DNA of 64,000 nucleotides, taken from contig JAJYIG010000001.1 of the NCBI GenBank assembly GCA_021790215.1, forward strand, positions 194 to 64,193, in the 5' to 3' direction. Made by a program: the position numbers and the translations under genes. Origin of the DNA: a bacterium. Lineage in GTDB: Bacteria > Patescibacteriota > Microgenomatia > UBA8517. The notes under the pieces were generated by a model, which made no database searches, was not told the origin of the DNA, and saw only the letters and a program-made list of their open reading frames with translations. Shown here in pieces: positions 5,780 through 53,674 of the stretch. Position 1 is the stretch's first letter. Every line of letters begins with the position of its first letter.

Positions 5780-5869
5780 AATATATTTATCAAAATTTCT
5801 TACAAAAATGTTAAATAAAGAATTTAAACAGACGCATTCGCCGCATTGTATCGTGGGCAGAAGAAAAAC

Positions 5870-7132
5870 TCAAGGCAGGAGATTCTTTATACTATCTATC
5901 ACCTTGCCGAAAATACCAATTGAGGGTAGTTTCACCTTTTTTGTGAAACTTGTCAAGTTCTGTTCCGGTATTTGTTTGGAACCATAAACCAAAAGTCCCA
6001 CTGAAGTTGCAAAAGAAGGTGTAATAATATCATCAATAAGACCTCCGACACCACCCGGAACACCAATTCTCACCGGAAGTGAAAGCATTCTTCTTGCAGA
6101 ATCGATTACACCAGCTGTTTCTGCACCTCCACCTGTAATGATTGCCCCTGAAGGAACCCTGTTGGCCAAACCTTCTCTTTCAAGTTCAAGCCTAACCATT
6201 GTAAATATCTCATTCAGACGAGGCCTTATTATTCCTTCCAAAAGAGTTTTTTTAGAAATTTTTTTGACCTCAGTAACACCCAGCGACTCCAGATCCACTT
6301 CATCCGTATCCTTATCATCTTTATGTTTTTTAGAAGAAAGAGCTAATTTGATTTTCTCTGCTGTCTCAAGTGAAACCCTCAGACCAATCGCCAAATCGTT
6401 GGTAACATTTTTAGCACCGACCGGAATCACACCCGAATAAGAAAGCGCACCGTCAACGTAAGCTGCAATTGAAGTTGTACCTCCGCCAATATCGACAAGG
6501 ACACATCCAAGCTCTTTTTCTGTCGGCGACACCACACCTTCTGAAGAGGCTACTCCTGAAAAAACCAAGTCTTCAATTTGGATCCCAACTTCATTAATTG
6601 CTTTTCTGAGATTTTTTACGGCGGCCGATGCAGCTGTAACAATGTGTGTATCAACTTCCAGCCGTACTCCGCTCATACCAACAGCATCTCTAACTCCCGC
6701 TTCTCCATCAACTACGAATTCTCTGGGCAAAACATGAATTACCTCCCGTGAAGCCGGCAAAGAAATCGCAGAAGCAGCTTCGATTGCCCGATCTACATCG
6801 TTTTGTGTAATTTCCCCGTTTGAATCAGATACCGCAACCACTCCATGTGAATTTTGTGAGTGAATATGCGCCCCGCCTAAAGAAACATAGGCAGCTTCAA
6901 GATTATATCCTGCCATTCTTTCTGCAGCCTCTACCGAGGAAATTATTGCCTCAACTGCCTCTTCAATATCTACTATCTGTCCTTTCTTGATTCCACGCGA
7001 TTCCGTTGCAGAAGCACCAACGACATTAATAGAAGTCTCAAAAGTTACAGGTTCTACCACAACCTGACTTACTAATGTGGAAATTTTACTTGATCCTATA
7101 TCAAGTGCAGCTACAATTCTGTTTTTAGCCAT
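5870..7132 (-). CDS. ftsA: Cell division protein FtsA (actin-like ATPase)
   Basis: 420 aa. N-terminal IVAALDIGSSKISTLV, DIGGGTT, actin-fold motifs, and its position upstream of ftsZ. Confidence 0.92.
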   Translation of the reverse strand: MAKNRIVAALDIGSSKISTLVSQVVVEPVTFETSINVVGASATESRGIKKGQIVDIEEAVEAIISSVEAAERMAGYNLEAAYVSLGGAHIHSQNSHGVVAVSDSNGEITQNDVDRAIEAASAISLPASREVIHVLPREFVVDGEAGVRDAVGMSGVRLEVDTHIVTAASAAVKNLRKAINEVGIQIEDLVFSGVASSEGVVSPTEKELGCVLVDIGGGTTSIAAYVDGALSYSGVIPVGAKNVTNDLAIGLRVSLETAEKIKLALSSKKHKDDKDTDEVDLESLGVTEVKKISKKTLLEGIIRPRLNEIFTMVRLELEREGLANRVPSGAIITGGGAETAGVIDSARRMLSLPVRIGVPGGVGGLIDDIITPSFATSVGLLVYGSKQIPEQNLTSFTKKVKLPSIGIFGKVIDSIKNLLP

Positions 7133-7137
7133 TTCAA

Positions 7138-7803
7138 TTATCTTAGCACAGGATTTTTATACCTCAAGTCGATTTGCGAATAAGAATTAACAGGTTCGCT
7201 TTGAATCTTTGAATATATCAATCTCAAAGCTCCAAGAAGAACCTGATAATCACCTTCTAAAGGAAATATTACTCTGATTCCACCAGGCATATCAACAAGC
7301 AAAGTTTTATTCTGAATATCCGAAGATTGAATCTGATACATTTCGTATACCCCAGCTTCCAGTTCAAGCGCAAAAAGATTTTGACCTCCGACATTTGCGC
7401 CTACAGCAGGAATACCACCGACAACTACGACAGTTGGTAGATTTGAGTTCTGTGTGGATGAAAAAACTTCACCGTTCTTCCCAACTAGATCTATATTTCC
7501 GGATCCTGAATCTTTTAGTGCAAACAAAGGCTCTCTAATGATTAGATTTACCTGAAGGAAATCCGGTAGTTTAAACTGCACTGAAAAATCTGAAACGAGA
7601 GGTTGGCTTTTGAGGAATTTTGAGAGCTCGGACCTAGCTTTAAAAAGGCTTTTATATTGCATTTTTGAAATCCCGGATTCAATTTCCACCGGACAGGATC
7701 CAACTTGAGATTTACATTCAATCCTTACTTTTACAAAAAATGGATAAAGAACCAAACCTAAAATAATGATGACTGCTGCGGTAGTTATCAGAATATTTTT
7801 CAC
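7138..7803 (-). CDS. ftsQ: Cell division protein FtsQ/DivIB (POTRA domain)
   Basis: 221 aa. Single N-terminal TM, C-terminal IDLRYKNPVL typical of FtsQ, and its position upstream of ftsA. Confidence 0.75.
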   Translation of the reverse strand: MKNILITTAAVIIILGLVLYPFFVKVRIECKSQVGSCPVEIESGISKMQYKSLFKARSELSKFLKSQPLVSDFSVQFKLPDFLQVNLIIREPLFALKDSGSGNIDLVGKNGEVFSSTQNSNLPTVVVVGGIPAVGANVGGQNLFALELEAGVYEMYQIQSSDIQNKTLLVDMPGGIRVIFPLEGDYQVLLGALRLIYSKIQSEPVNSYSQIDLRYKNPVLR

Positions 7804-7804
7804 T

Positions 7805-8962
7805 TTAGATTACGTAAGACTTGATAAGCTCTAAGAGTTTCTTGGAAGCCTCTTTGTCGGGGCTCGCTTTTGATTTAACTTTTTCCATTATCGATTGATA
7901 ATTTACAACCATGTTATCTAGGTTCCTGAGAAGAATCTCAGGAGTCAAATCTTTCTGCAAGATAATTTTGGCGATACCAAGTTCCTTGGCGATAAGCGCG
8001 TTTGCTTCTTGTTCGTTACGGTAGCTAATAGAAAGAGGAATCAAAATAGCCGGCCGTTTTACGGTTATAATTTCGGATACCGTATTTGCACCTGCACGTG
8101 ATACAATAAGATCAGCTTTCCCGTAAATTTCAGACACTTCTAGTGGGTTCACTCTAACAAATACTTCATAGTTATCTCTCAAAGCTTGCGGAAGTGCCTG
8201 TTTTATCTCCGAAAACTTATGATAATCCAGGCCTCCAGTTTGATGAATTACTTTATATTTCGCAAGGAGTTTCCTCAAAATTTTTTCAATAACTTTATTA
8301 ATACTTTGCGAACCACGCGATCCTCCGGTAATAAAAATGGTTGCGGGGTTTCCTATTTTCTTTTTAGGTTTAACCAAGGTGACTTCTTTCATGACCGGAT
8401 TGCCAGTAACAACACATTTTTGCAGAGGAAAATACTTTAAGCTATTTTCCCTGGATAGTGCAATCTTTGTCGCAAATTTTGATGAAATCTGATTCGAACG
8501 GCCACTCTCGGATGTTTGCTCGTGAATAACTATAGGAATTCCCAGAATTCTTGCACCCAAAACCACCGGGAAAGAGGCAAATCCACCAAAAGACAAAACT
8601 ACCTCAGGTTTAATCTGAACGAGGTAATAAAACGATTGAATAAAACCAATTGGTATTTTCAGAATTGAAGGGATTGTCCAAAATGTAAACCTAGTTTGGA
8701 AACGTCCTGTCTTTATCGCCAAAAATCTTACCCCTAGCCGGGGCAAAACTTCCGATTCCAATGTAACAATCTTTTTACCTTCAATTGCATTTCTCACACC
8801 AATCCAATAAAGCTTCCAATTCAGGTTTTGCGATCTAATTTCTTCCACCAAGGCAACTGCTGTTGTGGCAGCATGCCCGCCGGTAAAAACCACTGATTTA
8901 CTTTCTGTGTTTTTCATAAACATCGCTATATTTGCTGATATTAAGAAGTATACCGCAAGCAA
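7805..8962 (-). CDS. murG: MurG, UDP-GlcNAc:lipid I GlcNAc transferase
   Basis: VVFTGGHAATTAVAL and FITGGSRGSQSINK GT28 motifs. The true start is probably the internal Met near 8923 (MFMKNTESK...), which removes the overlap with ftsW. Confidence 0.9.
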   Translation of the reverse strand: MLAVYFLISANIAMFMKNTESKSVVFTGGHAATTAVALVEEIRSQNLNWKLYWIGVRNAIEGKKIVTLESEVLPRLGVRFLAIKTGRFQTRFTFWTIPSILKIPIGFIQSFYYLVQIKPEVVLSFGGFASFPVVLGARILGIPIVIHEQTSESGRSNQISSKFATKIALSRENSLKYFPLQKCVVTGNPVMKEVTLVKPKKKIGNPATIFITGGSRGSQSINKVIEKILRKLLAKYKVIHQTGGLDYHKFSEIKQALPQALRDNYEVFVRVNPLEVSEIYGKADLIVSRAGANTVSEIITVKRPAILIPLSISYRNEQEANALIAKELGIAKIILQKDLTPEILLRNLDNMVVNYQSIMEKVKSKASPDKEASKKLLELIKSYVI

Positions 8963-10121
8963 TAAGAGTCATCACTAAAGAACTCCCCCCATATGAAATA
9001 AAAGGCAGGGGAATACCCGTTAAAGGAACCAAAGCAACAATCGAGGCAATGTTTAAAAATGCCTGGCCGGCCACCCAAGTCGCAATACCAATTGCCAACA
9101 CTTTTGAAAAACTATCAGGAGCTTTTTGCGCTATCCTAATAGCTTTGAGAAAGAAATAAACAAACAGCGCAATAACAGCGACTGAGCCAATTAGTCCTAA
9201 TTCTTCAGAAATTACTGCAAAGATGGAATCAGTTGAAGCTTCAGGCAAAAACAAATATTTCTGGCGGGAAGCTCCGAGTCCCACACCAAAAGCACCACCC
9301 GAACCGAGAGCTAACAGAATCTGTCTAATGTGATAGGATTTTCCTAACGGATCTTCTGTGGTTTGCAAAAAGGTTGTCAATCTGGCCCTTCTGTATGGGG
9401 AAAGAATAATCAAGACAAATGTTGCCGCTGCACCCACTATACCCGCACCAAAGAAATAAAGAGGGTTAACATCTGAAACAAAGATCTGCGAAAGTCCTAT
9501 CATAGCTATAACTAACGTGGTTCCCAAATCCGGTTGCAGCATAATCAATGCCGAAACCACTGCAAGAGGAATAAAATATGACAAAGCATTTTTACCACGG
9601 CTGGCGACTTTCGCTAAATATATACAAATCGAGAATTTCATAAGTTCGGATGGTTGGAAATTAATTAACCCAAGTGAAATCCAACGTCTTGCACCAAGAG
9701 CGGCAGATCCAAAATGTGGAATTAAAACCAAAAGCAGAAGAGCAAGAGAACCAAAAAAGAATGGGGTCGCAACCTTCTCCCAAAATGAATATTTGATCTT
9801 GGATGCTATAACGAAAGCTATGATACCGATTACAGACCATTCCGCTTGCTGTTTTAAAAGATAAAATTTATCGCCATAAGCATTAAGGGCTTGCGGAGCT
9901 GAAACATCGGCAACGGCCACTAGTCCGAAAATAACCAAAAAAAGTACCAGTATGAGGAAATTCCTATCAATAGACCTCTCAGCTGAATTTTTCTGCTTGA
10001 GAAAACCTACTCTTTTCACACATTCATTGTAGCAATTTAGATAGTAGCTAACCAGAGCCCGAAGACGGCAAGAAGTATTCCCAAAATCCATGCTCTCATA
10101 ACAATCTTCGGCTCTTGCCAT
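8898..10121 (-). CDS. ftsW: FtsW (SEDS family, dcw cluster copy)
   Basis: Polytopic. LGKSYHIRQILLALGSGGAFGVGLGASRQKYLFLPEASTDSIFAVISEELG. The ORF start overlaps the mraY stop; a GTG at 10019 (VKRVGF...) would give a non-overlapping start. Confidence 0.88.
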   Translation of the reverse strand: MARAEDCYESMDFGNTSCRLRALVSYYLNCYNECVKRVGFLKQKNSAERSIDRNFLILVLFLVIFGLVAVADVSAPQALNAYGDKFYLLKQQAEWSVIGIIAFVIASKIKYSFWEKVATPFFFGSLALLLLVLIPHFGSAALGARRWISLGLINFQPSELMKFSICIYLAKVASRGKNALSYFIPLAVVSALIMLQPDLGTTLVIAMIGLSQIFVSDVNPLYFFGAGIVGAAATFVLIILSPYRRARLTTFLQTTEDPLGKSYHIRQILLALGSGGAFGVGLGASRQKYLFLPEASTDSIFAVISEELGLIGSVAVIALFVYFFLKAIRIAQKAPDSFSKVLAIGIATWVAGQAFLNIASIVALVPLTGIPLPFISYGGSSLVMTLIACGILLNISKYSDVYEKHRK

Positions 10122-11092
10122 CCACGCGCAAGAAAAGAATGATGAAGCGGTGCCAAAGTGAAAATTGGTTTTTTCAAAAATTTCCAGCCAAAGATCTGAA
10201 TTGCAGACGAAGCGACTTCAACTACAAAAATTCCACCAATAATAAGGAGGGCAACGATCTTCCCGGAAAGAAGACCTATTACTGCCAAAGTTGCGCCAAA
10301 TGATAGTGCACCCGCATCACCCAGGAAAATTCTTGCAGGCCAAACATTGAAATACAAGAAAGCTAGAAGTCCGCCAATCCATAAGGAAACAAAGATGGAT
10401 AAGGGAGTGTCTATCCTCCCGGCAGCAATAATCTCAAATGCAAAGAGACAAATTACCAAAAGTCCCACAGATAGTCCGTCGAGTCCGTCTGTAATATTAA
10501 AAGCATTTGAAAAAGAAACAATAGCTGCTGCAGCAAACGGAATATACCAAGGGCCCAAGTTCCAAACTATTCCGAAAATGGGAATATTAACAATTTGGAT
10601 ACCAAGAAGCTTATACATCATAAACCCTATTGAAAATCCCAAAATCCACTGCAAAAGGAATTTAGTACCGCGTCTTAATCCAAACCAAAGACCCAAGAAT
10701 CCTTTTGTCGGTTTTGCAAACATTTTGAGAAGATCATCGGACAAACCAAGAATACCAAAGGACAGGAAAGTAAAGAATATGACAAAAAGTTCAGAGTGCA
10801 AAGGGTAAGAGGTTTTTATAAAAATTCCCACCCGTTCAGCAAGCGGAAAAAGTATTGCAAATAGAAGACAAAGAAGAAAAATTATTAAAATTCCGCCGCC
10901 CACCGGCGTTCCGGCTTTTTTATCGTGAAGCTTATCAAAAAGCGGGACTTTACCGGTTTTTGGCGCCTCACGCCGCCTAGTGAAATGCAATCTATAAAGT
11001 AAGTCGATAAAAGGAATTATCAAAACAGAGGATATTAAGAAGGAAAAAATAATAATACCCAATGCTAATGGCAAAAAATGAGAGGTGGTCAT
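10037..11092 (-). CDS. mraY: MraY, phospho-MurNAc-pentapeptide translocase
   Basis: 351 aa polytopic with NAFNITDGLDGLSVGL, the conserved MraY/WecA motif. Confidence 0.93.
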   Translation of the reverse strand: MTTSHFLPLALGIIIFSFLISSVLIIPFIDLLYRLHFTRRREAPKTGKVPLFDKLHDKKAGTPVGGGILIIFLLCLLFAILFPLAERVGIFIKTSYPLHSELFVIFFTFLSFGILGLSDDLLKMFAKPTKGFLGLWFGLRRGTKFLLQWILGFSIGFMMYKLLGIQIVNIPIFGIVWNLGPWYIPFAAAAIVSFSNAFNITDGLDGLSVGLLVICLFAFEIIAAGRIDTPLSIFVSLWIGGLLAFLYFNVWPARIFLGDAGALSFGATLAVIGLLSGKIVALLIIGGIFVVEVASSAIQIFGWKFLKKPIFTLAPLHHSFLARGWQEPKIVMRAWILGILLAVFGLWLATI

Positions 11093-11122
11093 AAAAACCT
11101 AGGGTACAATGCCCTGAGAGAC

Positions 11123-11152
11123 ATTATATACTACTTGTGAAAACTATGACAA
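11123..11152 (-). promoter_or_regulatory. Candidate internal sigma70-like promoter for mraY (-35 TTGTCA, 18-nt spacer, -10 TATAAT on the minus strand)
   Basis: Reverse complement of 11147-11152 is TTGTCA and of 11123-11128 is TATAAT; it lies in the 65-nt gap between the FemAB-like gene and mraY. Confidence 0.3.
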
Positions 11153-11157
11153 TCAAG

Positions 11158-12180
11158 CTAAAGACGTCTCAAAAATTTTCTAATTCTCTCAAACAAATAT
11201 GTCAACCAATATAGCGGCGAAGTGGGCAGGTCACTAGCATGTAACCAATCTACCCTTTGTCCACCAAATCCGGTCTTGAATAAAGTTACTCCTGCAAAAC
11301 GATGATTCGGATTATTGTTCGGTGCAACTCCCCATAAATTATAGTATTTCAAACTACGTCTTTTTGCCTCCTGGATAATTTTCCATTGAAGGTAGTAAGA
11401 AAATGGCAAGCTAGGATATTTAGATGTTGATGCACTGAAATGATAGTAGGCAGCATTCCCATAAAATATTATTATTGCAGCTGCTAACACCTTCCGGTTC
11501 AACTTACACTCAAAAACACGCACACGATTGTCTTTTGCAAACGTTTCTATCTCTGCCTCAAACAGCTTTTGAGGAAAACCTACAAATTTATGACGTTTAG
11601 CAGTTTCCACTTGGAGATCGAACAATATCTTTGCCCTCCTCGGATCCTCTGACAACTCAACACTCAAACCGGAACCCAAACCTTTTTTCACAAGATACCT
11701 TGTCGATTTTCTCATTCCCATAAGTATTTTTTCTTCATCCTGGCTAATATCCAATATCCACGTATTTTCTGCATGAAGATGCATCGGCGCAGAGACAAAT
11801 CCAAATGATTTAAGAAGTTCTCTGTTATCTCTGGATTCAAGTATTTCCGGGCGTATTCTAACAAACCAAACACCTTCAGTATATGCAAGACTTCCTATCT
11901 CATCGACAAAAAAACGAAGCAGTTTTTTATTTCCAAAATCAAGAACAGGCCCGCCAGGGACAATCAGATGAGGCCCTCTTTTTGCATCCTCTCTGATAAG
12001 AAGGCATATGCCCACAAGTTTTTTCCCTTGGAAGAAACCAAGACGAAAAATTTTTGCTCCCATTCGTTCATTGACTTCACCCCAGTTCCACGACTGAAGA
12101 AATGACTTAGGATCTTTAGACAGCAAGAATCTCTCCCAAACCGCTTTATCTTCTATTACTTTTGATTTGTACTTCTCCAT
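11158..12180 (-). CDS. FemAB-family peptidyltransferase (FemX-like; tRNA-dependent addition of amino acids to the lipid II stem peptide)
   Basis: 340 aa. YYHFSASTSKYPSLPFSYYLQWKIIQEAKRRSLKYYNLWGV matches the FemAB C-terminal core (YYYGxS...Y...LQW..I..A...G...YDF.G). Lies inside the dcw cluster. Confidence 0.7.
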   Translation of the reverse strand: MEKYKSKVIEDKAVWERFLLSKDPKSFLQSWNWGEVNERMGAKIFRLGFFQGKKLVGICLLIREDAKRGPHLIVPGGPVLDFGNKKLLRFFVDEIGSLAYTEGVWFVRIRPEILESRDNRELLKSFGFVSAPMHLHAENTWILDISQDEEKILMGMRKSTRYLVKKGLGSGLSVELSEDPRRAKILFDLQVETAKRHKFVGFPQKLFEAEIETFAKDNRVRVFECKLNRKVLAAAIIIFYGNAAYYHFSASTSKYPSLPFSYYLQWKIIQEAKRRSLKYYNLWGVAPNNNPNHRFAGVTLFKTGFGGQRVDWLHASDLPTSPLYWLTYLFERIRKFLRRL

Positions 12181-13430
12181 AAATTTACAAGATTTGAAAT
12201 CCTCGTCGCTTCCTTCGCTGAAGTATTAATGTGAGTTGGAAGATTTAAGATTTGCTTTGAAATTTGTTCCGCCATAGGGCATTCTCCTTGATAACTTGTT
12301 TTAGCAAGCATTCTTCTTGGTGCAATGGGTGCATCATACCAAATATCTGAAACGTAAACCCTGTGACTTTTCAAATAAGTAACAAGGCCATTTCTGTTCT
12401 CTGTAAAAATCGGGTACCTTATGTTTGACGATTGATTGATATTCTTATTTAAATCATTCGATAACAAACTCTTATCAATAATCTCCATATATATCCTAGC
12501 AATTTTTCTTCGATGTCTGAGCTCAGAGTCAAATGAGGAAAACTTGTAATTAATCATAAAAGAATACCAATGAGGCAACCTGTGATATAAAACCAAATCC
12601 CTACCACCGATAGGTTGTGAAAGTACCTTTATTTTCTTCAGCAGAAAGTGTAAACCCCTTCCTAATCCAATTCGATAAAGACACCGAACCTTATACGTTA
12701 GGATTGGGTACAGTCGGTCTTTAAACCTTCTGATACTAGAAACATCAAAATACTGTATTTCTTTAAGACCCTTGTTAAACTTCTTGTTTCGTACAATCAG
12801 TGCGCCACCTGAAACGCCATCTATTATCTTATCCTGGCTGAACGAAAGCGTTGTAAAATCGCCAATTTTCCCAGCTTCCATACCATTTGAATAAAGGGTA
12901 CCTACACTATGAGCTAAATCTTCAATCAGAATAGTTTTATTTTTACTACAGTATTTTTTGATCTCCGCAATATCAACTGGATTACCAAGCGTATTTTGGA
13001 TAATGATAGCTTTCAGGTTTTTCACCTTTTCTAGTGCCTTGGACGAAAAATTCAAACTCTTGTCTATGTCTATATAGACAGGAATACACCCTGCTTCTAC
13101 CACGGCTTCATAAACCACAAAGCAAGTTAGCCCATTTACACCTATTCTGCTCCCTTTAGGGAATTGACACAGGTCAAGAGCTAACTTAATAGCTTCCCTG
13201 CCTTTATAGAGCAAAACTGGCTTTCCATCATATTTAGTATTCAAAAACTTTTTCAACTTCTCGCCTTCACCAAGAGTTCTCGAGGTAAAAAATGACTTAA
13301 CAACATATGCAAGGTTGTAATTTGAACCAAGCGAATTAAATACCATTTTTAATAATATTCCAGACTCTCTCGGGATGAGTATAAAAAGGGGTGTGTCTTG
13401 CTCCGTCAACAATAACCAATCTTGAACCAC
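12156..13430 (-). CDS. DegT/DnrJ/EryC1/StrS-family PLP-dependent aminotransferase-like protein
   Basis: Fold landmarks VNGLTCFVVYEAVVEAGCIPVYIDID, AIIIQNTLGNPVDIAEI, ILIEDLAHSVG and the putative Schiff-base Lys in LSFSQDKIIDGVSGGALI. Probable true start is the internal Met (MVFNSLG...) near 13346. Confidence 0.65.
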   Translation of the reverse strand: MVQDWLLLTEQDTPLFILIPRESGILLKMVFNSLGSNYNLAYVVKSFFTSRTLGEGEKLKKFLNTKYDGKPVLLYKGREAIKLALDLCQFPKGSRIGVNGLTCFVVYEAVVEAGCIPVYIDIDKSLNFSSKALEKVKNLKAIIIQNTLGNPVDIAEIKKYCSKNKTILIEDLAHSVGTLYSNGMEAGKIGDFTTLSFSQDKIIDGVSGGALIVRNKKFNKGLKEIQYFDVSSIRRFKDRLYPILTYKVRCLYRIGLGRGLHFLLKKIKVLSQPIGGRDLVLYHRLPHWYSFMINYKFSSFDSELRHRRKIARIYMEIIDKSLLSNDLNKNINQSSNIRYPIFTENRNGLVTYLKSHRVYVSDIWYDAPIAPRRMLAKTSYQGECPMAEQISKQILNLPTHINTSAKEATRISNLVNLWRSTNQK

Positions 13431-14055
13431 GAATCAGCTTTTCCATAATTCTTCCGTCAGAAAGTGGAGTTATTGTATCGTCCCTGCCCCAGATAATAAG
13501 CGTAGGTGTTTCTATTTCATCTAAATATGGTACTAAATCAGTACGTGTTAAATTTACCATCGATATCTTCATATTCGCAGACGCTTTCTGATAGTCACGC
13601 TCTCTTGCAAGGTAATATAAAAGGTTCTTCAGCGAATCCGACTTAGTAACCTTCTTACCGATGCTACTGAGAGTGCCAAAAACAAAACGTTTTATCTGAA
13701 GGAACAGCTCCTTATGATAAACACCGGCCGGGTCAATCAAAATCAGTTCTTGGAACTTTTCAGGGTGCTTCGCTGCAAAATAGGCTGCAATTCTACCACC
13801 ATTACTATGTCCCAAAAGTACAATCTTTCCCTTAATTTTATTTAACTCATCTCCAAGCCAGTCAGAATACCTTTCAATATCCCACACCTCATCCGAAGGC
13901 GCAGTTAAACCCGGAATCTTAAGAAAGATTAATTCACAACCGTCCTTTTTTAATAACTTTGCAAAGGTTTTCCACTTATCCAACGAATAGGTCCAACCAT
14001 GCAAAACATATATTTTTTTAATCACAGTCCCCATTTTTTCCTCCTTATCTCCCAA
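13336..14055 (-). CDS. Alpha/beta-fold hydrolase
   Basis: 239 aa. Nucleophile elbow LLGHSNGG, acid GRDDTITP and His GARHTPF give a catalytic triad pattern. Confidence 0.8.
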   Translation of the reverse strand: MGDKEEKMGTVIKKIYVLHGWTYSLDKWKTFAKLLKKDGCELIFLKIPGLTAPSDEVWDIERYSDWLGDELNKIKGKIVLLGHSNGGRIAAYFAAKHPEKFQELILIDPAGVYHKELFLQIKRFVFGTLSSIGKKVTKSDSLKNLLYYLARERDYQKASANMKISMVNLTRTDLVPYLDEIETPTLIIWGRDDTITPLSDGRIMEKLIRGSRLVIVDGARHTPFYTHPERVWNIIKNGI

Positions 14056-15278
14056 ATTTTTTCTCTTCTAGAAAGCATTTCAATATTCTTCTTATTTTTA
14101 AGTAGATGTTCAATTACCCCTTCAAGAAATCTTGCTCCCTTAAAAAGGATAATCTCTCCGCCTCTTAGGTTGCTTTTAAGATATTCCAAAACCTCTTTCG
14201 GACCGAGGAACGCCACCGTACTATCCGGTAAAAGCGGTTTGGTGTATTGAGTAACCCTGGGCCCCATTAAAATTATCCTATCAAACTTAAAATTTAAGAT
14301 CAGTTTTGCAAGATTCTCATGTTCCTCCTTCTCTTCTTTTCCTTGTTCAAGCATGTCTCCCAAGACTACCCACTTCTTCCTGGCTTTTATCTTGCCAAAC
14401 ATGCCAACAACAGCAGACATTGAATCCATATTTGCATTGTAAGTACTATCTACTATGGTAGTACCTTTAATTCCTTCAAAAAGTGAGTTTCGCCCCGGGG
14501 GCAAAATAAATTTTCCAAACGTTACATCAAACTCAATACCTAAGTAATTTGTAATTTGCCTTGCCATAAGTATCGAGGTAGATATCTCACCTGGCATTAA
14601 ATATCTAAAACTCACAACAAAATCATCAAATTTAAATTCCGTTTTTCCCAAACTAATTGAGTAATTTTTCAAACTATGTTTAGAGGAAACAGAAACAACA
14701 TTTGCCATTGTCCTTCCAAGCTCGCTGGCCTCATACAAATCGTCATCATTAATTATGACGAGGTTTCGGGTGCGTTCAATAAAATAACCAAATTCATATG
14801 CAATTGCGTTTTCAATTCTTGAAAATTTGTTCTTTCCTACCAGCCTATCAAAGTTCATACTGTGAGTTCTTGATACGTTGGTCCAAGCAGTTACCTCAGG
14901 TTTTAGAAGAGAACTAATGAAATTTCCTTCATAGGGTCTGTCGCAGTCCGCTTCAACAATATATATCTTTTCTCTCGGAACTGGTTTGAAAAGACTAAAG
15001 ATAGGAAGAAAAACTATCTTGGGCCATTCAATAAATGTGAGGTCCTTTCTATGAATTCCCAAAATATCAAAGGGGATTCCGAACGAACTATTGGCCTCGT
15101 GTGTGTATTTTGCCTTATCTCCAATCTGGGACTCCACCAAATGAAGTAGTGTGGTCTTTCCACTCGATCCTGTAATGACAATTATTCTCGGATTCCAAAA
15201 TTTAAGTCTGAGAGAAGCAAAAAAACGAAAATAAAAGGCAAGTGGAAAGTAAAAAAGCCTTTTAATTCTTATGTACAT
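14022..15278 (-). CDS. murF: Mur ligase, MurF-like (UDP-MurNAc-tripeptide:D-Ala-D-Ala ligase) lacking the usual N-terminal domain
   Basis: P-loop IVITGSSGKTT at residue about 33, IVDSTYNANMDSMSAVVG, and the C-terminal domain GDMLEQG (MurF GDMLELG). Confidence 0.65.
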   Translation of the reverse strand: MYIRIKRLFYFPLAFYFRFFASLRLKFWNPRIIVITGSSGKTTLLHLVESQIGDKAKYTHEANSSFGIPFDILGIHRKDLTFIEWPKIVFLPIFSLFKPVPREKIYIVEADCDRPYEGNFISSLLKPEVTAWTNVSRTHSMNFDRLVGKNKFSRIENAIAYEFGYFIERTRNLVIINDDDLYEASELGRTMANVVSVSSKHSLKNYSISLGKTEFKFDDFVVSFRYLMPGEISTSILMARQITNYLGIEFDVTFGKFILPPGRNSLFEGIKGTTIVDSTYNANMDSMSAVVGMFGKIKARKKWVVLGDMLEQGKEEKEEHENLAKLILNFKFDRIILMGPRVTQYTKPLLPDSTVAFLGPKEVLEYLKSNLRGGEIILFKGARFLEGVIEHLLKNKKNIEMLSRREKIWEIRRKKWGL

Positions 15279-17388: not shown

Positions 17389-19653
17389 TTAAAAGTTTAT
17401 TAACTGGACTTCACGCTCCAGCCTTACACCAAATTTTCTAAAAACATCGGCAATTATATTTTCTGAAAGATCGTAAATATCTGAGGCACTAGATTTACCA
17501 TCAGGATTTATTAAAATAAGAGAGTTTCTGGATGAAACGGCAGCAGTCTTATAACTTTTACCCTTCCAACCGGCTTGTTCTATCAACCACGCTGCAGAAA
17601 CTTTAAAGGATTTACCAAAAGGAAAAATTTTTATTTCCGGATATTCTTTCTTCAATCTAGTTTCTGCATCCTGGGAGACAATCGGGTTTTTGAAAAAAGA
17701 TCCGGCATTGCCAATCTTTTTCGGATCCTCCAACTTTTCTGACCTAGCTTTTAAAACTGCGTTCCTTACCTGAAGTAAAGTAGAATTTTCAGAAAGATAG
17801 TTCTTAAGAGTTTCATAACCAATAAATGGTTTTCCACCTTTATTGAGTTTTAAAGTTACTTCTGTTATTAAAAATTTTTGCCAATGAGACTTTTTCTTAA
17901 AAATACTTTCTCTATAATCAAATTTACAATCTTCTTTATCGAAAGTGACAAATTTTTCTATATCAATGTTGTAAGCTTTAAGGCTCACAAAAACATCCTT
18001 CAGTTCCTGCCCATACGCTCCGATATTTTGTATGGGGGCAGCTCCTACTGTGCCGGGAATACCGGACATACACTCGATTCCCTGCAAATTATTCCGAACA
18101 GAATAGTCGACCAAATCGTCCCACTTCATTCCGGCACCTGCCGTAACCAAAGCTTCGTTCCCGTTAAAATTTACGTTAACGCTTTTACCCGAGAACTTAA
18201 TAACAATCCCATCAAAATCTTTGTCGCTAGGGAGGATGTCACTTCCACCTCCAATAATAAAAAATGGTTGATCATTCTTTTTAATTTCCTTCACCATTGC
18301 AGGTATCTCCACCTCTGAGTCAATCTCAACATATCGATTAATTTTTCCGCCAACCCTAAAGGTTGTAAGATCGGAAAATTTGACAGGAAGTAAATTGGCA
18401 ATTTCCCTCGCCCATAGGTAGCTTTTTCCGGCACCCATGACCAAGACAATATCACCTTCTCTTAAATCACGCAGCAATATATCTTTAATTTCTTCAAACG
18501 AATCAAATCCTTTCGCATCCTTATGTCCTGTCTCCTTTGCAACAATTTCCGGGGTAATTCCGAACGTCTCCTTATCGCGTGCCTTGAAAATCGGCCCGAT
18601 TAAAACTTTATCAGCATCCATAAAAGAATTTTTATATAAAGAAAGTAGGGCCTTGGTTCTGACAAAACCGTGCGGTTCATCGATAGCCCAAATCTTTGAT
18701 TTTGGGTAAACCTCGCGAAGCGCCGAGATTGTTGCCGCGATTGCTGTGGGGTGATGGGCATAATCATCATAAACTTTTACACTGCTTCTATCCGAAATAA
18801 GCTCAAGTCTCCTACCAATACCTTTGAAATTTTCAAGAGAGTCCCTAATGGTTTCATTTTTAATTCCCAGAAGTTCTGCAAGTTTCAAAACCCCCAAAGC
18901 ATTTGCAATATTGTGTTTACCCGGAATCTTCAGAGTAAAACCAAGGCTCTCTTTAGATGGAAAATATTTAATAATTTTGATATCGGCAGTATCAAGAGAT
19001 ACCAAAAGTTTTTGTATTCCTTCTGACTCCCCGTTAACGATCAGGGTTTTTTCTCCAACCAGGTTCCCGACAAATTTAGAAAAACTTTTAATTACCTCCT
19101 CCTCAGAAGCAAAATAATCGGGATGGTCAAACTCGATGTTATTTAGAACAATAATTTCCGGGTGATAATTCAGAAAATTATCGTTAAATTCATCTGCTTC
19201 AATGACAAAATACTCCCCCTTTCCATACCTGGAATTCCCGTTCCACTCAGGGACAGTCGCTCCAAGAACTACCGTGGGGTCCAGTCCGGCATCAACGAGA
19301 AGACGACCGGTCATTGCTGTTGTTGTAGATTTGCCATGAGTTCCTGCTACGCAAATTACCTTTTTATCCTTTGCCAGATACTTTCCTGCAAATTCCTCCC
19401 AAGTTACAACCACTTTTCTTTTCTCACCTTCGATAAGCTCCGGGCTTTTATTTTTCTGGAAATATACAGCTGGCGTGACAACCAATAAATCAATACCTTC
19501 CAAGTGTTTTGGATTGTGGCCCTGGATTATGTCACCGGAATATGCAGTACTTTTCTCCAAGTCACACCCCGTAATTTCATATCCCATGTTGGCAGCAAGC
19601 TTGGCAACTCCTGCCATTCCGCTTCCTCCAATTCCCATCATGTGAATTCTCAT
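17389..19653 (-). CDS. murC/murB: Bifunctional MurC-MurB fusion (UDP-MurNAc:L-Ala ligase fused to UDP-GlcNAc-enolpyruvate reductase)
   Basis: 754 aa. Residues 1-~440 are MurC (HMMGIGGSGMAGVA, VCVAGTHGKSTTTAM). Residues ~445-754 are MurB (TTFRVGG, FIIGGGSDIL, IPGTVGAAPIQNIGAYGQE; FAD-binding/PCMH fold). The domain boundary is near nt 18320. A 4-nt ATGA overlap with murE gives translational coupling. Confidence 0.85.
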   Translation of the reverse strand: MRIHMMGIGGSGMAGVAKLAANMGYEITGCDLEKSTAYSGDIIQGHNPKHLEGIDLLVVTPAVYFQKNKSPELIEGEKRKVVVTWEEFAGKYLAKDKKVICVAGTHGKSTTTAMTGRLLVDAGLDPTVVLGATVPEWNGNSRYGKGEYFVIEADEFNDNFLNYHPEIIVLNNIEFDHPDYFASEEEVIKSFSKFVGNLVGEKTLIVNGESEGIQKLLVSLDTADIKIIKYFPSKESLGFTLKIPGKHNIANALGVLKLAELLGIKNETIRDSLENFKGIGRRLELISDRSSVKVYDDYAHHPTAIAATISALREVYPKSKIWAIDEPHGFVRTKALLSLYKNSFMDADKVLIGPIFKARDKETFGITPEIVAKETGHKDAKGFDSFEEIKDILLRDLREGDIVLVMGAGKSYLWAREIANLLPVKFSDLTTFRVGGKINRYVEIDSEVEIPAMVKEIKKNDQPFFIIGGGSDILPSDKDFDGIVIKFSGKSVNVNFNGNEALVTAGAGMKWDDLVDYSVRNNLQGIECMSGIPGTVGAAPIQNIGAYGQELKDVFVSLKAYNIDIEKFVTFDKEDCKFDYRESIFKKKSHWQKFLITEVTLKLNKGGKPFIGYETLKNYLSENSTLLQVRNAVLKARSEKLEDPKKIGNAGSFFKNPIVSQDAETRLKKEYPEIKIFPFGKSFKVSAAWLIEQAGWKGKSYKTAAVSSRNSLILINPDGKSSASDIYDLSENIIADVFRKFGVRLEREVQLINF

Positions 19654-21647
19654 TTTAGTTTTTCCTCCATCTTTCTCTCAGCCTCTGCAAGCTGTTCAGG
19701 GGTATTGATTCCCTGCCACTCAATTGAATTAGGAAGTGTATAGGCAACAGTCCTTTCTCCCTGATCAATCGCCATTTTGATAAGCTCGACTATGTAATAT
19801 TCTCCGGAAACAGGGCTTTTTTCAACTTTTGGCAGATTTTTCTCCAGCCACTTTTTATCAAATACATAAAGTCCATCATTTATTTCCTTAATCTTTCGCT
19901 CTTTATCCGTCGCATCTTTTTCTTCAATAATACCTTTCAGATTTCCTCTTCCATCACGTACGATTCTTCCAAGTCCGTGGGGGTCATCCTTAATTAGAGT
20001 GACAAAACTTAAGATAGCTTTTTTCTCCTTATGGTTTTCCAAAACTTTATTTATTGTCTCTGGAGAATAAAACGCAGTATCGTCTCCATATAAAACCATT
20101 ACGTATTTTGTTTCATCCGAAACACGCTGAAGTCCGGAGGAAGCAGCGTCTGCGGTTCCTCCTTTGGGATTACCCTGAACTGCAATCTTAACCGCGCCAT
20201 CTATTTGCCTTATAACCAGATTTTTCTTAAATGAAACCACAACAATAATTTCTCCAACACCGGCATTTCTTAAATGCTGAAGTGAATAAGTGATCATGGG
20301 TCTTCCGCAAATTTTGTGAAGGACTTTGGGAAGGCCTGAGTTCATCCTGGTCCCTTTTCCGGCCGCAAGGAGGATCGCAGAAACATCTTTTTTCCTTTCA
20401 ATGTAGTTTTTTACGGACTCAAAATCGCTCCAAGGATGTTCATATCCATCGTAGGCCATACTTTTCTCATGTCCTTTTCCGGCGAAAACTACAGTGTCTC
20501 CTTTTTTAGCAATTGAGAGAGCATAGGGAATTGCCTCCCCTCTTTCGGGAATCGCGACATAATTTTTGGCGTCCTTCTTCATCGATCGCAAAATATCAAA
20601 AATATTTTCACTTCTCGGATCCTCAGCCGTAAAGACACTCATATCGGCCAATTCTCCGGATATTTTGCCCATCTTTCGGCGTTTTTTATGATCCCTTTCT
20701 CCTGCGCAACCAAAAACTGAGATTAACTTTCCGGACGTAACTGATCTCAAATATTTTAGAAGTGCCTCAAGTGATTCTGGGGTATGTGCAAAATCAATAA
20801 AAACCTTAATGCCCAAATTATTTTTAATTTCCATAAGTCGTCCTTCGGGAAGCTTAAAGGTTTTTAAGGTCATAAGAGCTTGGCTCCTCTCAAAACCAAG
20901 TTTTTCAACTGCCATTAAAGCTGCCTCCACATCCAAATTGTTAAAATCCCCCGGAAGAATTTTCAAGTTTGTAAACTCCGGAGCAATAACCTTCAACCTG
21001 GCCGAATTCAAAAATGACATTTTAACCTTCTTATATTCCTTAAAGGTTTTGTGATAATCCAAATGCTCAGGCGCAATATTGGTCAAAACTCCTACTTCAA
21101 ATCTAACCCCGGCAATTCTTTTTTGATCAATTCCATGCGAACTAACCTCGACCACAGCATATTCACATCCCGCCTTTACCATTTCCGCTAAAAATTTATG
21201 AAGAGAGAGTGTGTCAGGACTTGTTACATGGAAACCTGTATCAATCTCTTTATCCCCTATCTTGGCAATTATTGAAGAAACCAGGCCAGTTTTCTTACCT
21301 AACGAGGTTAAAATATGATAGATCAGGTGAGATGTGGTAGTTTTACCTTTCGTGCCTGTTACTCCTATTACTGTAAGATGCTCGGAAGGGTTGCCATAAA
21401 ATTCTGAAGCGATCTCCCCAAGGGCCTCCCTTGAATCCGGCACTTTTATGTATATGGCATCTTTCAGCTTCAAATTTCGCTCTCCAACTACTGCAATCGC
21501 TCCCCTTTTTACAGCCTCAGAAATAAAATCGTGGCCGTCAGAATTCATGCCTTTTATAGCTACAAAGATAAAGCCTTTTCTTACATTTCTTGAGTCATCG
21601 GCAACCCCCTTTGCGCCTTTGACCAAATCCTCCAAATCTTTTATCAT
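19650..21647 (-). CDS. murE: MurE (UDP-MurNAc-dipeptide:diamino-acid ligase) fused to a GlmU-type sugar-1-phosphate uridylyltransferase domain
   Basis: 665 aa. Residues 1-~415 are MurE (ADDSRNVRKGFIFVAIKG, VIGVTGTKGKTTTSHL, GKGHE). Residues ~416-665 are ILLAAGKGTRMNSGLPKVLH, LYGDD and EEKDATDKERKIKEINDG, which closely match the GlmU N-terminal uridyltransferase signatures (LAAGKGTRM, YGDVPL, KDATxEQRxIxEIN). No LbH acetyltransferase domain follows. Confidence 0.8.
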   Translation of the reverse strand: MIKDLEDLVKGAKGVADDSRNVRKGFIFVAIKGMNSDGHDFISEAVKRGAIAVVGERNLKLKDAIYIKVPDSREALGEIASEFYGNPSEHLTVIGVTGTKGKTTTSHLIYHILTSLGKKTGLVSSIIAKIGDKEIDTGFHVTSPDTLSLHKFLAEMVKAGCEYAVVEVSSHGIDQKRIAGVRFEVGVLTNIAPEHLDYHKTFKEYKKVKMSFLNSARLKVIAPEFTNLKILPGDFNNLDVEAALMAVEKLGFERSQALMTLKTFKLPEGRLMEIKNNLGIKVFIDFAHTPESLEALLKYLRSVTSGKLISVFGCAGERDHKKRRKMGKISGELADMSVFTAEDPRSENIFDILRSMKKDAKNYVAIPERGEAIPYALSIAKKGDTVVFAGKGHEKSMAYDGYEHPWSDFESVKNYIERKKDVSAILLAAGKGTRMNSGLPKVLHKICGRPMITYSLQHLRNAGVGEIIVVVSFKKNLVIRQIDGAVKIAVQGNPKGGTADAASSGLQRVSDETKYVMVLYGDDTAFYSPETINKVLENHKEKKAILSFVTLIKDDPHGLGRIVRDGRGNLKGIIEEKDATDKERKIKEINDGLYVFDKKWLEKNLPKVEKSPVSGEYYIVELIKMAIDQGERTVAYTLPNSIEWQGINTPEQLAEAERKMEEKLK

Positions 21648-21675: not shown

Positions 21676-22704
21676 CTAGGCAGAACCCGATTCCAAGATG
21701 GCCTTTGCAAGCCTTTCGGAATTATGGCGTAAAAGATGATCCTTCTTTAGGTATTCCCCAAGCTTAGCCTTAACAACCTTCACATTTGGTGCAAGCTTTC
21801 TGCAGAGTTCTTCGTCAAGCTCAACCACTTCCTGACCTTCCTTTTTATAAAGATTCACTATTTCTTTATCCAATCTTGCATTACTTACTACCAAAAAGTT
21901 TAAGCGTTTTTTATTGCCTAAATAAAAAAGTAATGCCTTAAGGTAATCCGATGCTTTGAAAGAATCAGTTTCACCTGGCTTAGTAGTCAAATTTAAGACG
22001 AAGTAAACTTTTGCACGGGAACGGCAGATGGCCTCCGCAACTCCGTCAATCAAAAGGTGCGGCAAAACACTTGTAAAAAGATCTCCTGGAGCAAAGACAA
22101 TTTTATCAGCCTGGCTTATGGCAGTGAGCACTTTGGGATTATTGTCGGCGTGAGTTCCAAAATAAATCCTCACAATTCTATCTTTTGGATCAAAATCCTT
22201 TCTTTCACTTCTTTTATCGATATTTGTTTCACCATCCACCTCAACTCCACGCTCAGTATGGCAACCAAGAGTTAAATCGGTAAGACTTGCGGGAAGGACC
22301 TGGCCGCGAATACGGAATAAGGCTCTTTCGGCGTCGGTTCCTCTATCCTGTCCATGAAATATACGATCAAGCCTGACACCAATTAAATTACCAAGGGAAT
22401 GTCCTTTTAGTGGGCCAACCACTTCTTTTAGTCTATCGTCAAAAAGTCTCTGGGCAACTCTTTGCTGTTCATCGTCTTCCATTAAAGCCAAAAGACAGGC
22501 TCTAATGTCCCCCGGAGGCAAAACTCCGAGTTCAGTACGTAAAATACCGGAAGAACCTCCACTGTCCCATGTCCCAACTACTGCAGTTATCAAAGATGGG
22601 TCGTTAAACTTTTTTAAACCGGTGAGAAGTTGAAAATGGCCGGTCTTACCGCCAAAAGTCACTATCTTTTGTCTGAATTTACTTTTGGCCGTTTGAGCTA
22701 TCAT
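21676..22704 (-). CDS. YvcK/UPF0052 (CofD-like, gluconeogenesis-factor/GlmR family) protein
   Basis: IVTFGGKTGHFQLLTGLK ... VVGTWDSGGSSGILR ... LPPGDIRACLLAL matches the YvcK/CofD family core (GGGTG, DDGGSSG, PPGDxRN). Confidence 0.75.
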   Translation of the reverse strand: MIAQTAKSKFRQKIVTFGGKTGHFQLLTGLKKFNDPSLITAVVGTWDSGGSSGILRTELGVLPPGDIRACLLALMEDDEQQRVAQRLFDDRLKEVVGPLKGHSLGNLIGVRLDRIFHGQDRGTDAERALFRIRGQVLPASLTDLTLGCHTERGVEVDGETNIDKRSERKDFDPKDRIVRIYFGTHADNNPKVLTAISQADKIVFAPGDLFTSVLPHLLIDGVAEAICRSRAKVYFVLNLTTKPGETDSFKASDYLKALLFYLGNKKRLNFLVVSNARLDKEIVNLYKKEGQEVVELDEELCRKLAPNVKVVKAKLGEYLKKDHLLRHNSERLAKAILESGSA

Positions 22705-38477: not shown

Positions 38478-39164
38478 TTAGATAGCGCCGACACCGCTAA
38501 TCATGGCAAATGGAGTTTTAATCATAACACCTAAATCAAAAAGGATTGATTTTCGGCGCGCATATTCAGCATCCATTTTAATCCTCTTTTCAAAACCAAT
38601 ATTACTCCTTCCGGTAACTTGCCAATACCCTGTAATCCCAGGCTTTACCGTCAACATGTCTTTAACATATTTTTCTGTCCCTCTGTACCTTTTTTGCTGC
38701 TCTTCAAGCTCTTTAGGTAGGTAGGGTCTGGGACCCACCAAACTCATTTCTCCTTTCAAAACATTAAAAAGTTGCGGCATCTCGTCAATAGAGTGTTTCC
38801 GAATAAACCGTCCGAATTTCATAACCCTTGGGTCTTTGTGAAGCTTGTAGCCCGAATTTTTGTATTCTTCATAAAGACTCCTAAACTTCGGGTCTGTCTC
38901 AAGAAGTTTATCGGCGTTAACAAGCATGGAACGGAATTTATAAAGCCTAAAAACTTTTCCGCCTTTTGTAAGACGTCTCATGTGTGAGTTCTCTTTCTCG
39001 ACAAGCACAGGACCTTCCGAAGTAATTTTAATTATTATGGCTGTCAAAATTATTATTGGGGAAAAAAGAACTAAAAGAAATATTGAGGCGAAGACATCTA
39101 TCGTTCTTTTAGTAAGATCATATAACATAAATTTCCTAAAGAAGGTCCGAACGTTTTTCCTCAA
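38478..39164 (-). CDS. Initiating polyprenyl-phosphate hexose-1-phosphate transferase (bacterial sugar transferase, PglC/WbaP C-terminal-domain type)
   Basis: 228 aa. Re-entrant helix KRTIDVFASIFLLVLFSPIIILTAIIIKI, then KFRSM...DEMPQLFNVLKGEMSLVGPRP, the monotopic PGT catalytic signature. Confidence 0.88.
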   Translation of the reverse strand: MRKNVRTFFRKFMLYDLTKRTIDVFASIFLLVLFSPIIILTAIIIKITSEGPVLVEKENSHMRRLTKGGKVFRLYKFRSMLVNADKLLETDPKFRSLYEEYKNSGYKLHKDPRVMKFGRFIRKHSIDEMPQLFNVLKGEMSLVGPRPYLPKELEEQQKRYRGTEKYVKDMLTVKPGITGYWQVTGRSNIGFEKRIKMDAEYARRKSILFDLGVMIKTPFAMISGVGAI

Positions 39165-42428: not shown

Positions 42429-42429
42429 A

Positions 42430-49404: not shown

Positions 49405-49410
49405 AAGAAG

Positions 49411-51124: not shown

Positions 51125-51187
51125 TTAACTTATTGTAAAGCAACCCACAGACATTCACAAAGGCATAGCTAACTAACATATATTAAG

Positions 51188-52270: not shown

Positions 52271-52336
52271 GACTTTTATTTCATATAAAATCCACTATCT
52301 GAGATTCTTGAATCGTTTAATTGTACTAATAGAATT

Positions 52337-53668: not shown

Positions 53669-53674
53669 TGATAG

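Follow-up and report, generated by a model that had tools for sequence, protein, structure and literature searches.

The question raised by the locus described here is what three further genes do at a place where, in the textbook cluster of genes for cell division and the cell wall (dcw), murF and mraY adjoin. The genes encode a predicted FemX-type transferase, a DegT-like pyridoxal phosphate (PLP) enzyme and an alpha/beta hydrolase. They reside in a stretch of 64,000 nucleotides, hereafter the window, from a bacterium of the GTDB lineage Patescibacteriota, Microgenomatia, UBA8517 (assembly GCA_021790215.1, contig JAJYIG010000001.1, positions 194 to 64,193 of the forward strand). Named close homologues and related loci belong to Woesebacteria/Microgenomates, part of the CPR (candidate phyla radiation, or Patescibacteria). 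Together with the gene of an unusual MurF-like ligase, the three genes are a conserved CPR-wide four-gene unit. Well supported as its components are a transfer of the Fem type linked to the step of MurF, a PLP reaction to which this transfer is obligatorily coupled, and a serine hydrolase.

A four-gene unit conserved across the CPR

The features of the region, with corrected starts, are the following:

14022..15278, minus strand: MurF-like Mur ligase of type 1, 418 aa, module member (Pfam, NCBIfam, PDB alignment)
13336..14034 (open reading frame to 14055), minus strand: alpha/beta-fold serine hydrolase, 232 aa (Pfam, NCBIfam, motifs, AAGGAGG)
12156..13346 (open reading frame to 13430), minus strand: DegT/DnrJ/EryC1-fold PLP enzyme, 396 aa (Pfam, AlphaFold 2/Foldseek, residues)
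11158..12180, minus strand: predicted FemX-type aminoacyl-tRNA-dependent transferase, 340 aa (Pfam, AlphaFold 2, Fem fold)
11093..11157, minus strand: 65-nt gap, the sole intergenic gap of the murI-to-mraY run, with a promoter-like site inside
10037..11092, minus strand: mraY, context, outside the conserved module (TIGR00445 1.1e-51; Pfam Glycos_transf_4)

Three overlapping genes between murF and mraY had been described in an earlier note on this DNA, and the minus-strand open reading frames (11158-12180, 12156-13430 and 13336-14055) overlap as stated there. Two starts were corrected. The hydrolase gene likely begins at the ATG at 14034, which is preceded by AAGGAGG 5 nt upstream, and the DegT-like gene at the ATG at 13346; the same starts (232 and 396 aa) were assigned independently to the genes on two further contigs of this organism. 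The overlaps then measure, from murF to femX, 13, 11 and 25 nt. The co-expression suggested in the same note is plausible, in view of the overlaps and of terminator-like sites showing no excess in the region. Promoter-like sites are, in total, not above the shuffled expectation; the TTGTCA-18-TATAAT sequence at 11152-11123, before mraY, matches the sigma-70 consensus at 11 of 12 positions, which is weak evidence of a promoter.

A scan of one genome per GTDB species with the FemX alignment yielded 80 loci, whose lineages are Woese-, Blackburn-, Beckwith-, Parcu-, Sacchari- and Peribacteria. In 79 of them, according to searches with profiles of the window proteins, FemX has the DegT-like gene directly upstream of it. 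Genes for the Mur ligase, the hydrolase, the DegT-like protein and FemX all fall within 6 kb in 59 of 82 loci, most misses being contig ends, and NCBIfam models identify the adjoining ligase as MurF-like in all lineages tested. The module adjoins mraY only in Microgenomates-type loci. In Saccharibacteria (locus L057), Peribacteria (L045) and locus L083 it is found among unrelated genes, and the neighbours of stand-alone modules include rpsL/rpsG, a recombinase, an EamA transporter, ArgRS and DNA glycosylases; the unit is therefore independent of mraY. Synteny of the trio holds in essentially all sampled relatives. The earlier note had interpreted it as an insertion into the canonical murF-mraY junction, a view that has to be abandoned, since the unit includes MurF and exists away from mraY. 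Clustering of neighbouring genes revealed no conserved fifth partner but only lineage-specific synteny, as for ArgRS and an SH3/polysaccharide-deacetylase gene in Peribacteria.

Fusions of the PLP enzyme to FemX

An exhaustive HMMER search of 1.84 billion representative proteins returned 460 clusters at E<=1e-30. Among the best 150 of these, five are DegT-like::FemX fusions of 706-743 aa, which differ from each other by more than 50% and in which Pfam places the DegT domain at the N-terminus and FemAB at the C-terminus. Fusion P0246 is 46% identical to the DegT-like protein of the window, and its C-terminal half aligns with the whole length of the window FemX at 40% identity. Two fusion clusters have several distinct full-length members from different assemblies, and P0246 occurs on four contigs, so that an assembly error is unlikely. 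In locus L083 the order is MurF (414 aa), hydrolase (243 aa), fusion (735 aa). The fusions strongly support a joint role of the PLP enzyme and FemX in one reaction sequence. No fusion of the hydrolase with MurF or DegT was found among its best 120 homologues.

The three enzymes

The identities proposed in the earlier note hold for all three genes, and the Pfam profiles named there (PF02388, PF01041 and PF00561) are all matched above cut-off. The first gene encodes a true member of the Fem family rather than a generic GNAT protein, as profile, fold and catalytic residues agree; the second is identified as DegT-like by its profile, the fold-type I DegT fold and the PLP Lys and Asp; the third is a Ser-hydrolase by profile, fold and Ser-Asp-His triad. 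Conservation of residues was judged in 66-84 sequences spanning all lineages, with a threshold of at least 95%.

FemX matches Pfam FemAB at 5.7e-38 (131.2 bits, cut-off 24). Its AlphaFold 2 model, with a predicted local distance difference test (pLDDT) score of 94, has the dupli-GNAT Fem fold, and template modelling (TM) scores are 0.82/0.83 to Weissella FemX (both directions, full length) and 0.82 to Staphylococcus aureus FemX, versus 0.50-0.59 to domains of aminoacyl-phosphatidylglycerol synthases (aaPGS)/MprF. The best sequence match in the PDB is 6snr (E 1.4e-13), and the alignment skips the 6snr coiled coil: the protein has the short architecture, devoid of the coiled-coil arm. Residues F301-K302 correspond in alignment to the F-K of S. 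aureus FemX, and are conserved above threshold in 84 CPR-wide sequences, as are many arginines; the catalytic Phe-Lys pair of Weissella FemX is F304-K305. The model for Weissella FemX orthologues (NCBIfam NF047883) gives 62.8 bits against a cut-off of 500. The linkage to MurF and the placement in the dcw cluster suggest that the donor would be an aminoacyl-tRNA and the acceptor an amine of a peptidoglycan precursor. Loci of Saccharibacteria, including L057 and L059, host two tandem FemX paralogues, the window one.

The DegT-like protein matches Pfam DegT_DnrJ_EryC1 at 2.6e-34 (119.4 bits, cut-off 19.8), and its model has a pLDDT of 91.9. The best Foldseek matches are the nucleoside diphosphate (NDP)-sugar 3-aminotransferases WlaRG, QdtB and WbpE, with TM ~0.72, 18-20% identity, E ~1e-21 and root-mean-square deviations of 6-9 A. 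K173 (the PLP lysine, in SFxxDK), E142-D143, S168, G180-G181, W336, R50 and C75 are conserved CPR-wide above threshold. In HMMER alignments C75 occupies the position of the Phe in the T-F motif of 7b0d and QdtB, a residue which presumably stacks on the PLP cofactor, and W336-Y337 are aligned with QdtB H309-Y310, which we take to be nucleotide-contacting residues. An extra helical insertion, at about residues 204-238, is basic in the window type of module and hydrophobic in type 2 (see below). The NCBIfam equivalogs for sugar aminotransferases PseC, LegC, WecE, ArnB, DesI and RfbH score 38-93 bits, with cut-offs of 375-650. An NCBIfam pair made of a FemAB protein and a PLP enzyme, TIGR04421/TIGR04422, matches the window proteins weakly. 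Routine annotation names the DegT-like gene 'perosamine synthetase'.

The hydrolase matches Pfam Abhydrolase_1 (PF00561) at 2.7e-22 (80 bits, cut-off 25.8). It features an HGW oxyanion motif (H12-G13-W14), a GHSxGG elbow (G75-H76-S77-x-G79-G80), D186 and H214; motifs and the S77/D186/H214 triad are conserved above threshold in 66 CPR-wide sequences. The best solved relative is PDB 6i8w ('Alpha/beta fold hydrolase'), presumably the membrane phospholipase PlaF, followed by lipases and ABHD6. JGI names the gene BioH; TIGR01738 scores 82.2 against a cut-off of 206.95, in two partial stretches, and does not sustain the name. The hydrolase of Saccharibacteria (L057:5589-6887, L059) carries a C-terminal extension of ~200 aa, for which no Pfam or PDB match was found.

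An unusual MurF and two module types

Four Mur ligases are encoded in the cluster: MurC, MurD, MurE and, as the fourth, the MurF-like protein of the module, whose gene has the position canonical for murF in dcw clusters. In both module types TIGR01143 murF is the best Mur-ligase subfamily, with a window score of 129.5 against a cut-off of 288.6. Only Mur_ligase_M and Mur_ligase_C are recognized by Pfam, and the N-terminal, UDP-binding domain was not detected. The P-loop GSSGKT lies at about residue 36, and the alignment to the MurF of T. maritima (3zl8) begins at chain residue 77. A start located ~35 residues before the P-loop, and an alignment which begins at residue 77, indicate that the canonical N-terminal domain is missing; MurC, MurD and MurE of the same cluster retain theirs. 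MurF type and gene order co-vary without exception, and define two types of module:

Type 1: window clade, Saccharibacteria and L083; order MurF-hydrolase-DegT-FemX; MurF of ~415-440 aa
Type 2: other Microgenomates, Beckwith-, Parcu- and Peribacteria; order hydrolase-MurF-DegT-FemX; MurF of ~480-560 aa
Type-2 MurF with N-terminal extension, examples: L006:5312-6898, L019:5183-6760, L045:5124-6677 and other type-2 loci

The N-terminal extension of type-2 MurF proteins, which occur in most CPR lineages, takes the place of the canonical domain and spans ~170 residues. It contains a conserved WQxKEYRFDR motif as well as 4-5 predicted membrane helices, and is covered by no Pfam family.

The genes of the module have different histories. 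Between the window clade and neighbouring type-2 Microgenomates mean identity is 56.5% for FemX and 67.4% for MraY, about the same as within groups, versus 30% for DegT, 31% for the hydrolase and 19% for MurF. In neighbour-joining trees (Poisson distances, 100 bootstraps) FemX and MraY group the clade of the window and type-2 Microgenomates together (99 and 100 of 100), whereas MurF, DegT and the hydrolase group the window clade with Saccharibacteria (100, 100 and 96 of 100). Three genes have thus been exchanged, or have diverged, as a block, apart from FemX. FemX has changed little between the two types, which suggests that the two blocks are functionally equivalent. MurF, hydrolase and DegT plausibly have to match each other, for example as parts of a complex.

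All four module proteins are basic. Median isoelectric points (pI) range from 9.3 to 9.6 across lineages, and 87-95% of the proteins are above 8.5; among single proteins, the window hydrolase has a pI of 9.4 and DegT-like proteins of ~9.3-9.8. These values resemble those of MurG and MraY, while MurD, MurA and FtsA of the window are acidic (pI 5.2-5.9). The basic charge fits work at the membrane surface and/or on tRNA.

A possible pathway and its alternatives

At the end of the cytoplasmic pathway that lies next to the membrane, the four-gene unit may finish and tailor the peptidoglycan precursor, a reading to which we give an even chance. MurF, either devoid of its usual N-terminal domain or, in type 2, anchored by predicted membrane helices, would complete the stem peptide. 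FemX would then move an amino acid from an aminoacyl-tRNA to a free amine of the precursor. The acceptor would most likely be the side-chain amine of a residue 3 of the diaminopimelic acid (DAP) type, since MurE of the cluster scores above the cut-off of the NCBIfam equivalog for DAP ligases (426 versus 373 bits), and the outcome would be a branched stem peptide around the MraY step. The DegT-like protein, as the obligate partner of FemX, would carry out PLP chemistry on the amine side of the transfer: it could make or reshape the acceptor amine, or act on the aminoacyl group before or after transfer. The Ser-Asp-His hydrolase would cleave an ester or an amide, its role being probably editing or trimming. 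An as yet undescribed peptidoglycan chemistry in this lineage, as proposed in the earlier note, is plausible. Amination or deacylation of MurNAc/GlcNAc, also raised there, finds no support: the modules with annotated neighbours yielded no enzyme that forms keto-sugars, and MurNAc has its C3 and C4 positions occupied or needed.

A more specific version can be envisaged, which we consider improbable. According to it, the CPR would have a tRNA- and PLP-dependent route to a modified stem-peptide branch, the DegT-fold enzyme acting on the aminoacyl group itself. Its substrate would be the aminoacyl-tRNA or the freshly transferred N-terminal residue; epimerisation to a D-residue, or formation of a keto-acyl cap, could be examples of the reaction, and the esterase-like hydrolase could proofread. 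The proteins would form a membrane-bound complex organised by a MurF in which the UDP-binding domain has been swapped for a membrane anchor, and MurF may use lipid-linked rather than nucleotide-linked intermediates.

Several observations weigh against the four-gene pathway. The loci were picked through FemX, and the counts therefore apply to FemX-bearing genomes, not to the frequency of the module across the CPR. The complete genome of a Beckwithbacterium (L036, CP011210) has the order hydrolase-MurF-FemX-MraY at 5786-10069, with no DegT-like gene, and tblastn revealed no DegT-like sequence within the 17 kb fetched. Conversely, a fusion stands alone in L085 (8001-10211, on an 877-kb contig), with no MurF or hydrolase gene within 8 kb on either side. 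K36, R211 and Y215 of Weissella FemX, which presumably line the cavity for UDP-MurNAc-pentapeptide, align with N37, F202 and L206 of the window protein, and the acceptor or its binding mode may differ; at ~18% identity this is a hint at most, and Y254 of the Weissella enzyme is kept as Y246. Finally, characterised enzymes of the DegT family need a keto-sugar, though no dehydrogenase or dehydratase able to form one was found in or beside the annotated modules.

One alternative is an amino-sugar logic. The DegT-like enzyme would transaminate a nucleotide-linked keto-sugar made by an enzyme encoded elsewhere, and FemX would aminoacylate the new amine; we hold this to be unlikely, and just as unlikely that the product is an aminoacylated sugar destined to the glycan strand or to a wall-linked polymer, with no stem-peptide branch. 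Antibiotic pathways in which amino sugars or phosphonate amines are acylated by Fem-like enzymes offer a parallel, and the weak matches to the TIGR04421/TIGR04422 pair speak for this logic too. All close structural neighbours of the DegT-like model are NDP-sugar 3-aminotransferases, the order DegT then FemX in the fusions fits an amine made first and acylated second, and Fem-fold PDB entries with an amino-sugar acceptor (9wqx/9wqy, streptothrisamine complexes) reach TM 0.69-0.71 to the query. Loss of the Weissella cavity residues points the same way. The main weakness of this logic is that no keto-sugar-forming dehydrogenase or dehydratase was found in the modules with annotated neighbours; a glycosyltransferase was not found in them either. 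Moreover, the module's link is to MurF and not to sugar genes, DegT co-varies with MurF, an invariant Cys75 replaces the canonical Phe, the scores stay far from those required by any NCBIfam equivalog for sugar aminotransferases, and MurNAc offers neither C3 nor C4. Somewhat less likely again is that PLP enzyme and hydrolase provide or police the C-terminal D-aminoacyl unit for MurF, FemX being a mere pathway neighbour. A racemase- or transaminase-like source of D-amino acids would be flanked by a hydrolase removing a wrong dipeptide, depsipeptide or terminus, a scheme given the same low credence. The shared phylogeny of MurF, hydrolase and DegT, which swap as a block independently of FemX, speaks for it, as do Cys75 and Arg50 in a PLP site unlike that of sugar aminotransferases. 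Neither ddl nor alr was found in the dcw cluster in a scan of 46 of the larger open reading frames of the 64-kb window, a result that bears on the window and not on the rest of the genome. Yet DegT is fused to FemX and not to MurF, which is the main difficulty; a supplier of free amino acids would have no reason to co-vary with MurF, and no racemase with the DegT fold is known to us. CPR genomes are moreover reported to give hits to genes for D-Ala-D-X ligases of the van type (PMC8651080), and Peribacteria are said to encode all peptidoglycan genes (PMC4736985).

The solved relatives of the hydrolase (6i8w, lipases and the monoacylglycerol lipase ABHD6), the basic charge of all module proteins and the predicted embedding of type-2 MurF in the membrane bring to mind an MprF-like aminoacylation of lipids or of other targets outside peptidoglycan. 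An ester on a membrane lipid would be made by FemX with aminoacyl-tRNA and undone by the lipase-like hydrolase; pairs of synthases and hydrolases for aminoacyl lipids, as for aminoacyl-phosphatidylglycerol, are known. This is highly improbable, as the Fem proteins are much closer in structure to FemX (TM 0.82) than are aaPGS/MprF domains (0.50-0.59), Pfam FemAB is matched far over cut-off, and the constant partnership with MurF and the dcw placement speak for peptidoglycan. That three unrelated genes without a common function were inserted by chance or as mobile DNA, for which nothing speaks beyond the departure from the textbook murF-mraY junction, can be practically dismissed: order, overlaps, fusions and active sites are conserved across phylum-level CPR lineages, and the GC content of the three genes (0.375-0.39) is inside the range of the remaining window (0.36-0.44). 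Random insertion was rejected on the basis of synteny in the 80 species-level loci. Completion and tailoring of the stem peptide by the four-gene unit is the reading compared below with known systems.

Relation to known systems

The closest parallel to FemX is the UDP-MurNAc-pentapeptide:L-alanine transferase of Weissella viridescens. Both proteins have a dupli-GNAT Fem fold, no coiled coil and similar length (335 versus 340 aa in the window), and the Phe-Lys catalytic pair and Y254 (Y246 here) are kept. The vicinity of femX to murF in the module fits an action on a soluble or just-made precursor, as for the Weissella enzyme. The two differ in that identity is 18%, and that the window FemX belongs to a group for which a PLP enzyme is a constant partner and in some cases a fused one, unlike in Weissella. 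FemX, FemA and FemB of S. aureus and the pneumococcal MurM and MurN, which branch lipid II, are members of the same family, and the use of aminoacyl-tRNA to build branches is presumed to be shared; unlike the S. aureus proteins, the window FemX lacks a coiled-coil arm of ~65 residues.

In DhpH, an enzyme of dehydrophos biosynthesis, a PLP domain makes an amine, and a fused Fem-like tRNA-dependent domain aminoacylates it. DhpH works on a phosphonate in a secondary-metabolite pathway, with no MurF or hydrolase partner. The CPR fusions resemble DhpH in the order of their domains and would share its logic. The DegT-like protein shares with QdtB, WlaRG and WbpE the DegT fold, the PLP lysine, Asp, Ser and an aromatic pair at the position of QdtB H309-Y310, and differs from them in Cys75 replacing Phe, R50 and the extra basic or hydrophobic helical insertion. 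MurT/GatD likewise combines a protein of the Mur-ligase family lacking the canonical N-terminal domain with a dedicated partner, acting on a late precursor at the membrane. In contrast, the window ligase is MurF-like, with negligible matches to MurT, and its partners are a PLP enzyme, a hydrolase and FemX, not a glutaminase.

No description of the module was found in the full-text literature searched; the paper of Megrian et al. (2022) on the evolution of the dcw cluster lay outside that search. A passing mention of femX among listed wall genes of Patescibacteria was found (PMC12992704). The module thus appears to be undescribed within that literature, and would be of the stem-peptide branching and tailoring kind, with a chemistry of PLP enzyme and hydrolase proposed here from context.

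The dcw cluster and other features of the window and loci

The dcw cluster of the window includes, in order, mraZ, mraW, ftsI, murA, a CofD/YvcK-like gene, a fusion of murE to the N-terminal part of glmU, a murC-murB fusion, murD, murI, the MurF-like ligase, hydrolase, DegT-like and FemX genes, mraY, ftsW, murG, ftsQ, ftsA and ftsZ. The MurC-MurB fusion (754 aa, 17389-19653, minus strand) corresponds in many relatives to separate murC and murB reading frames. MurE is fused to the nucleotidyltransferase half of GlmU (665 aa, 19650-21647, minus strand). The CofD/YvcK-like gene (21676-22704, minus strand) lies between murA and murE; in Beckwith-like loci (L026-L032, L036) a homologue resides directly upstream of the module hydrolase. 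A long run of GT1/GT2/GT4 glycosyltransferase genes with a sugar-1-phosphate nucleotidyltransferase (39136-56773, minus strand) is probably a surface polysaccharide locus, and no partner enzymes for an aminotransferase were found among the reading frames scanned there.

No tRNA gene was found in the 64-kb window, and an Rfam scan of the window gave no match. Most of 60 loci that were scanned likewise have no tRNA gene beside the module which could hint at the amino acid transferred. In about 10 loci of Peribacteria (among them L038, L042, L044, L045, L049, L053, L054, L056, L062) a tRNA-Met(CAT) gene is located 0.5-6 kb upstream; as a signal for the amino acid it was set aside, and read as lineage synteny. 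In L045 this gene abuts a serine recombinase gene, which suggests an integration hotspot beside the module. A contig with an identical FemX (L001:9858-14777) departs from the window after ftsW into small phage-like genes, encoding an ERF recombinase and an SLT_3 lytic transglycosylase in place of murG-ftsQ-ftsA, which may reflect a prophage, a strain variant or a chimeric assembly. Many public records of metagenome-assembled genomes titled Gammaproteobacteria, Alphaproteobacteria or Pseudomonadales have typical CPR dcw/module content and look like taxonomy mislabels (L003, L005, L007, L016-L019, L023-L027, L030, L031, L034, L035).

Implications

The names 'perosamine synthetase' and 'BioH' have probably fed into metabolic reconstructions, such as that of Peribacteria, which are said to make 'perosamine' (PMC4736985). 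The CPR makes up a large share of bacterial diversity. At the MurF/Fem stage the module points to a definite deviation from the textbook pathway, one open to experiment and shared by Microgenomates, Saccharibacteria and Peribacteria. Saccharibacteria bearing the module lend themselves to co-culture and genetic manipulation (PMC10633639), and muropeptide analyses and knock-outs are therefore feasible. Should the precursor or the aminoacyl-tRNA be the substrate of PLP enzyme and hydrolase, they would represent a new type of reaction both for peptidoglycan biosynthesis and for the DegT fold, and provide a lineage-specific envelope target and marker. Were the tRNA- and PLP-dependent route to a modified branch to prove true, it would amount to a phylum-wide, hitherto unseen peptidoglycan chemotype, in which the late cytoplasmic steps have been reordered.

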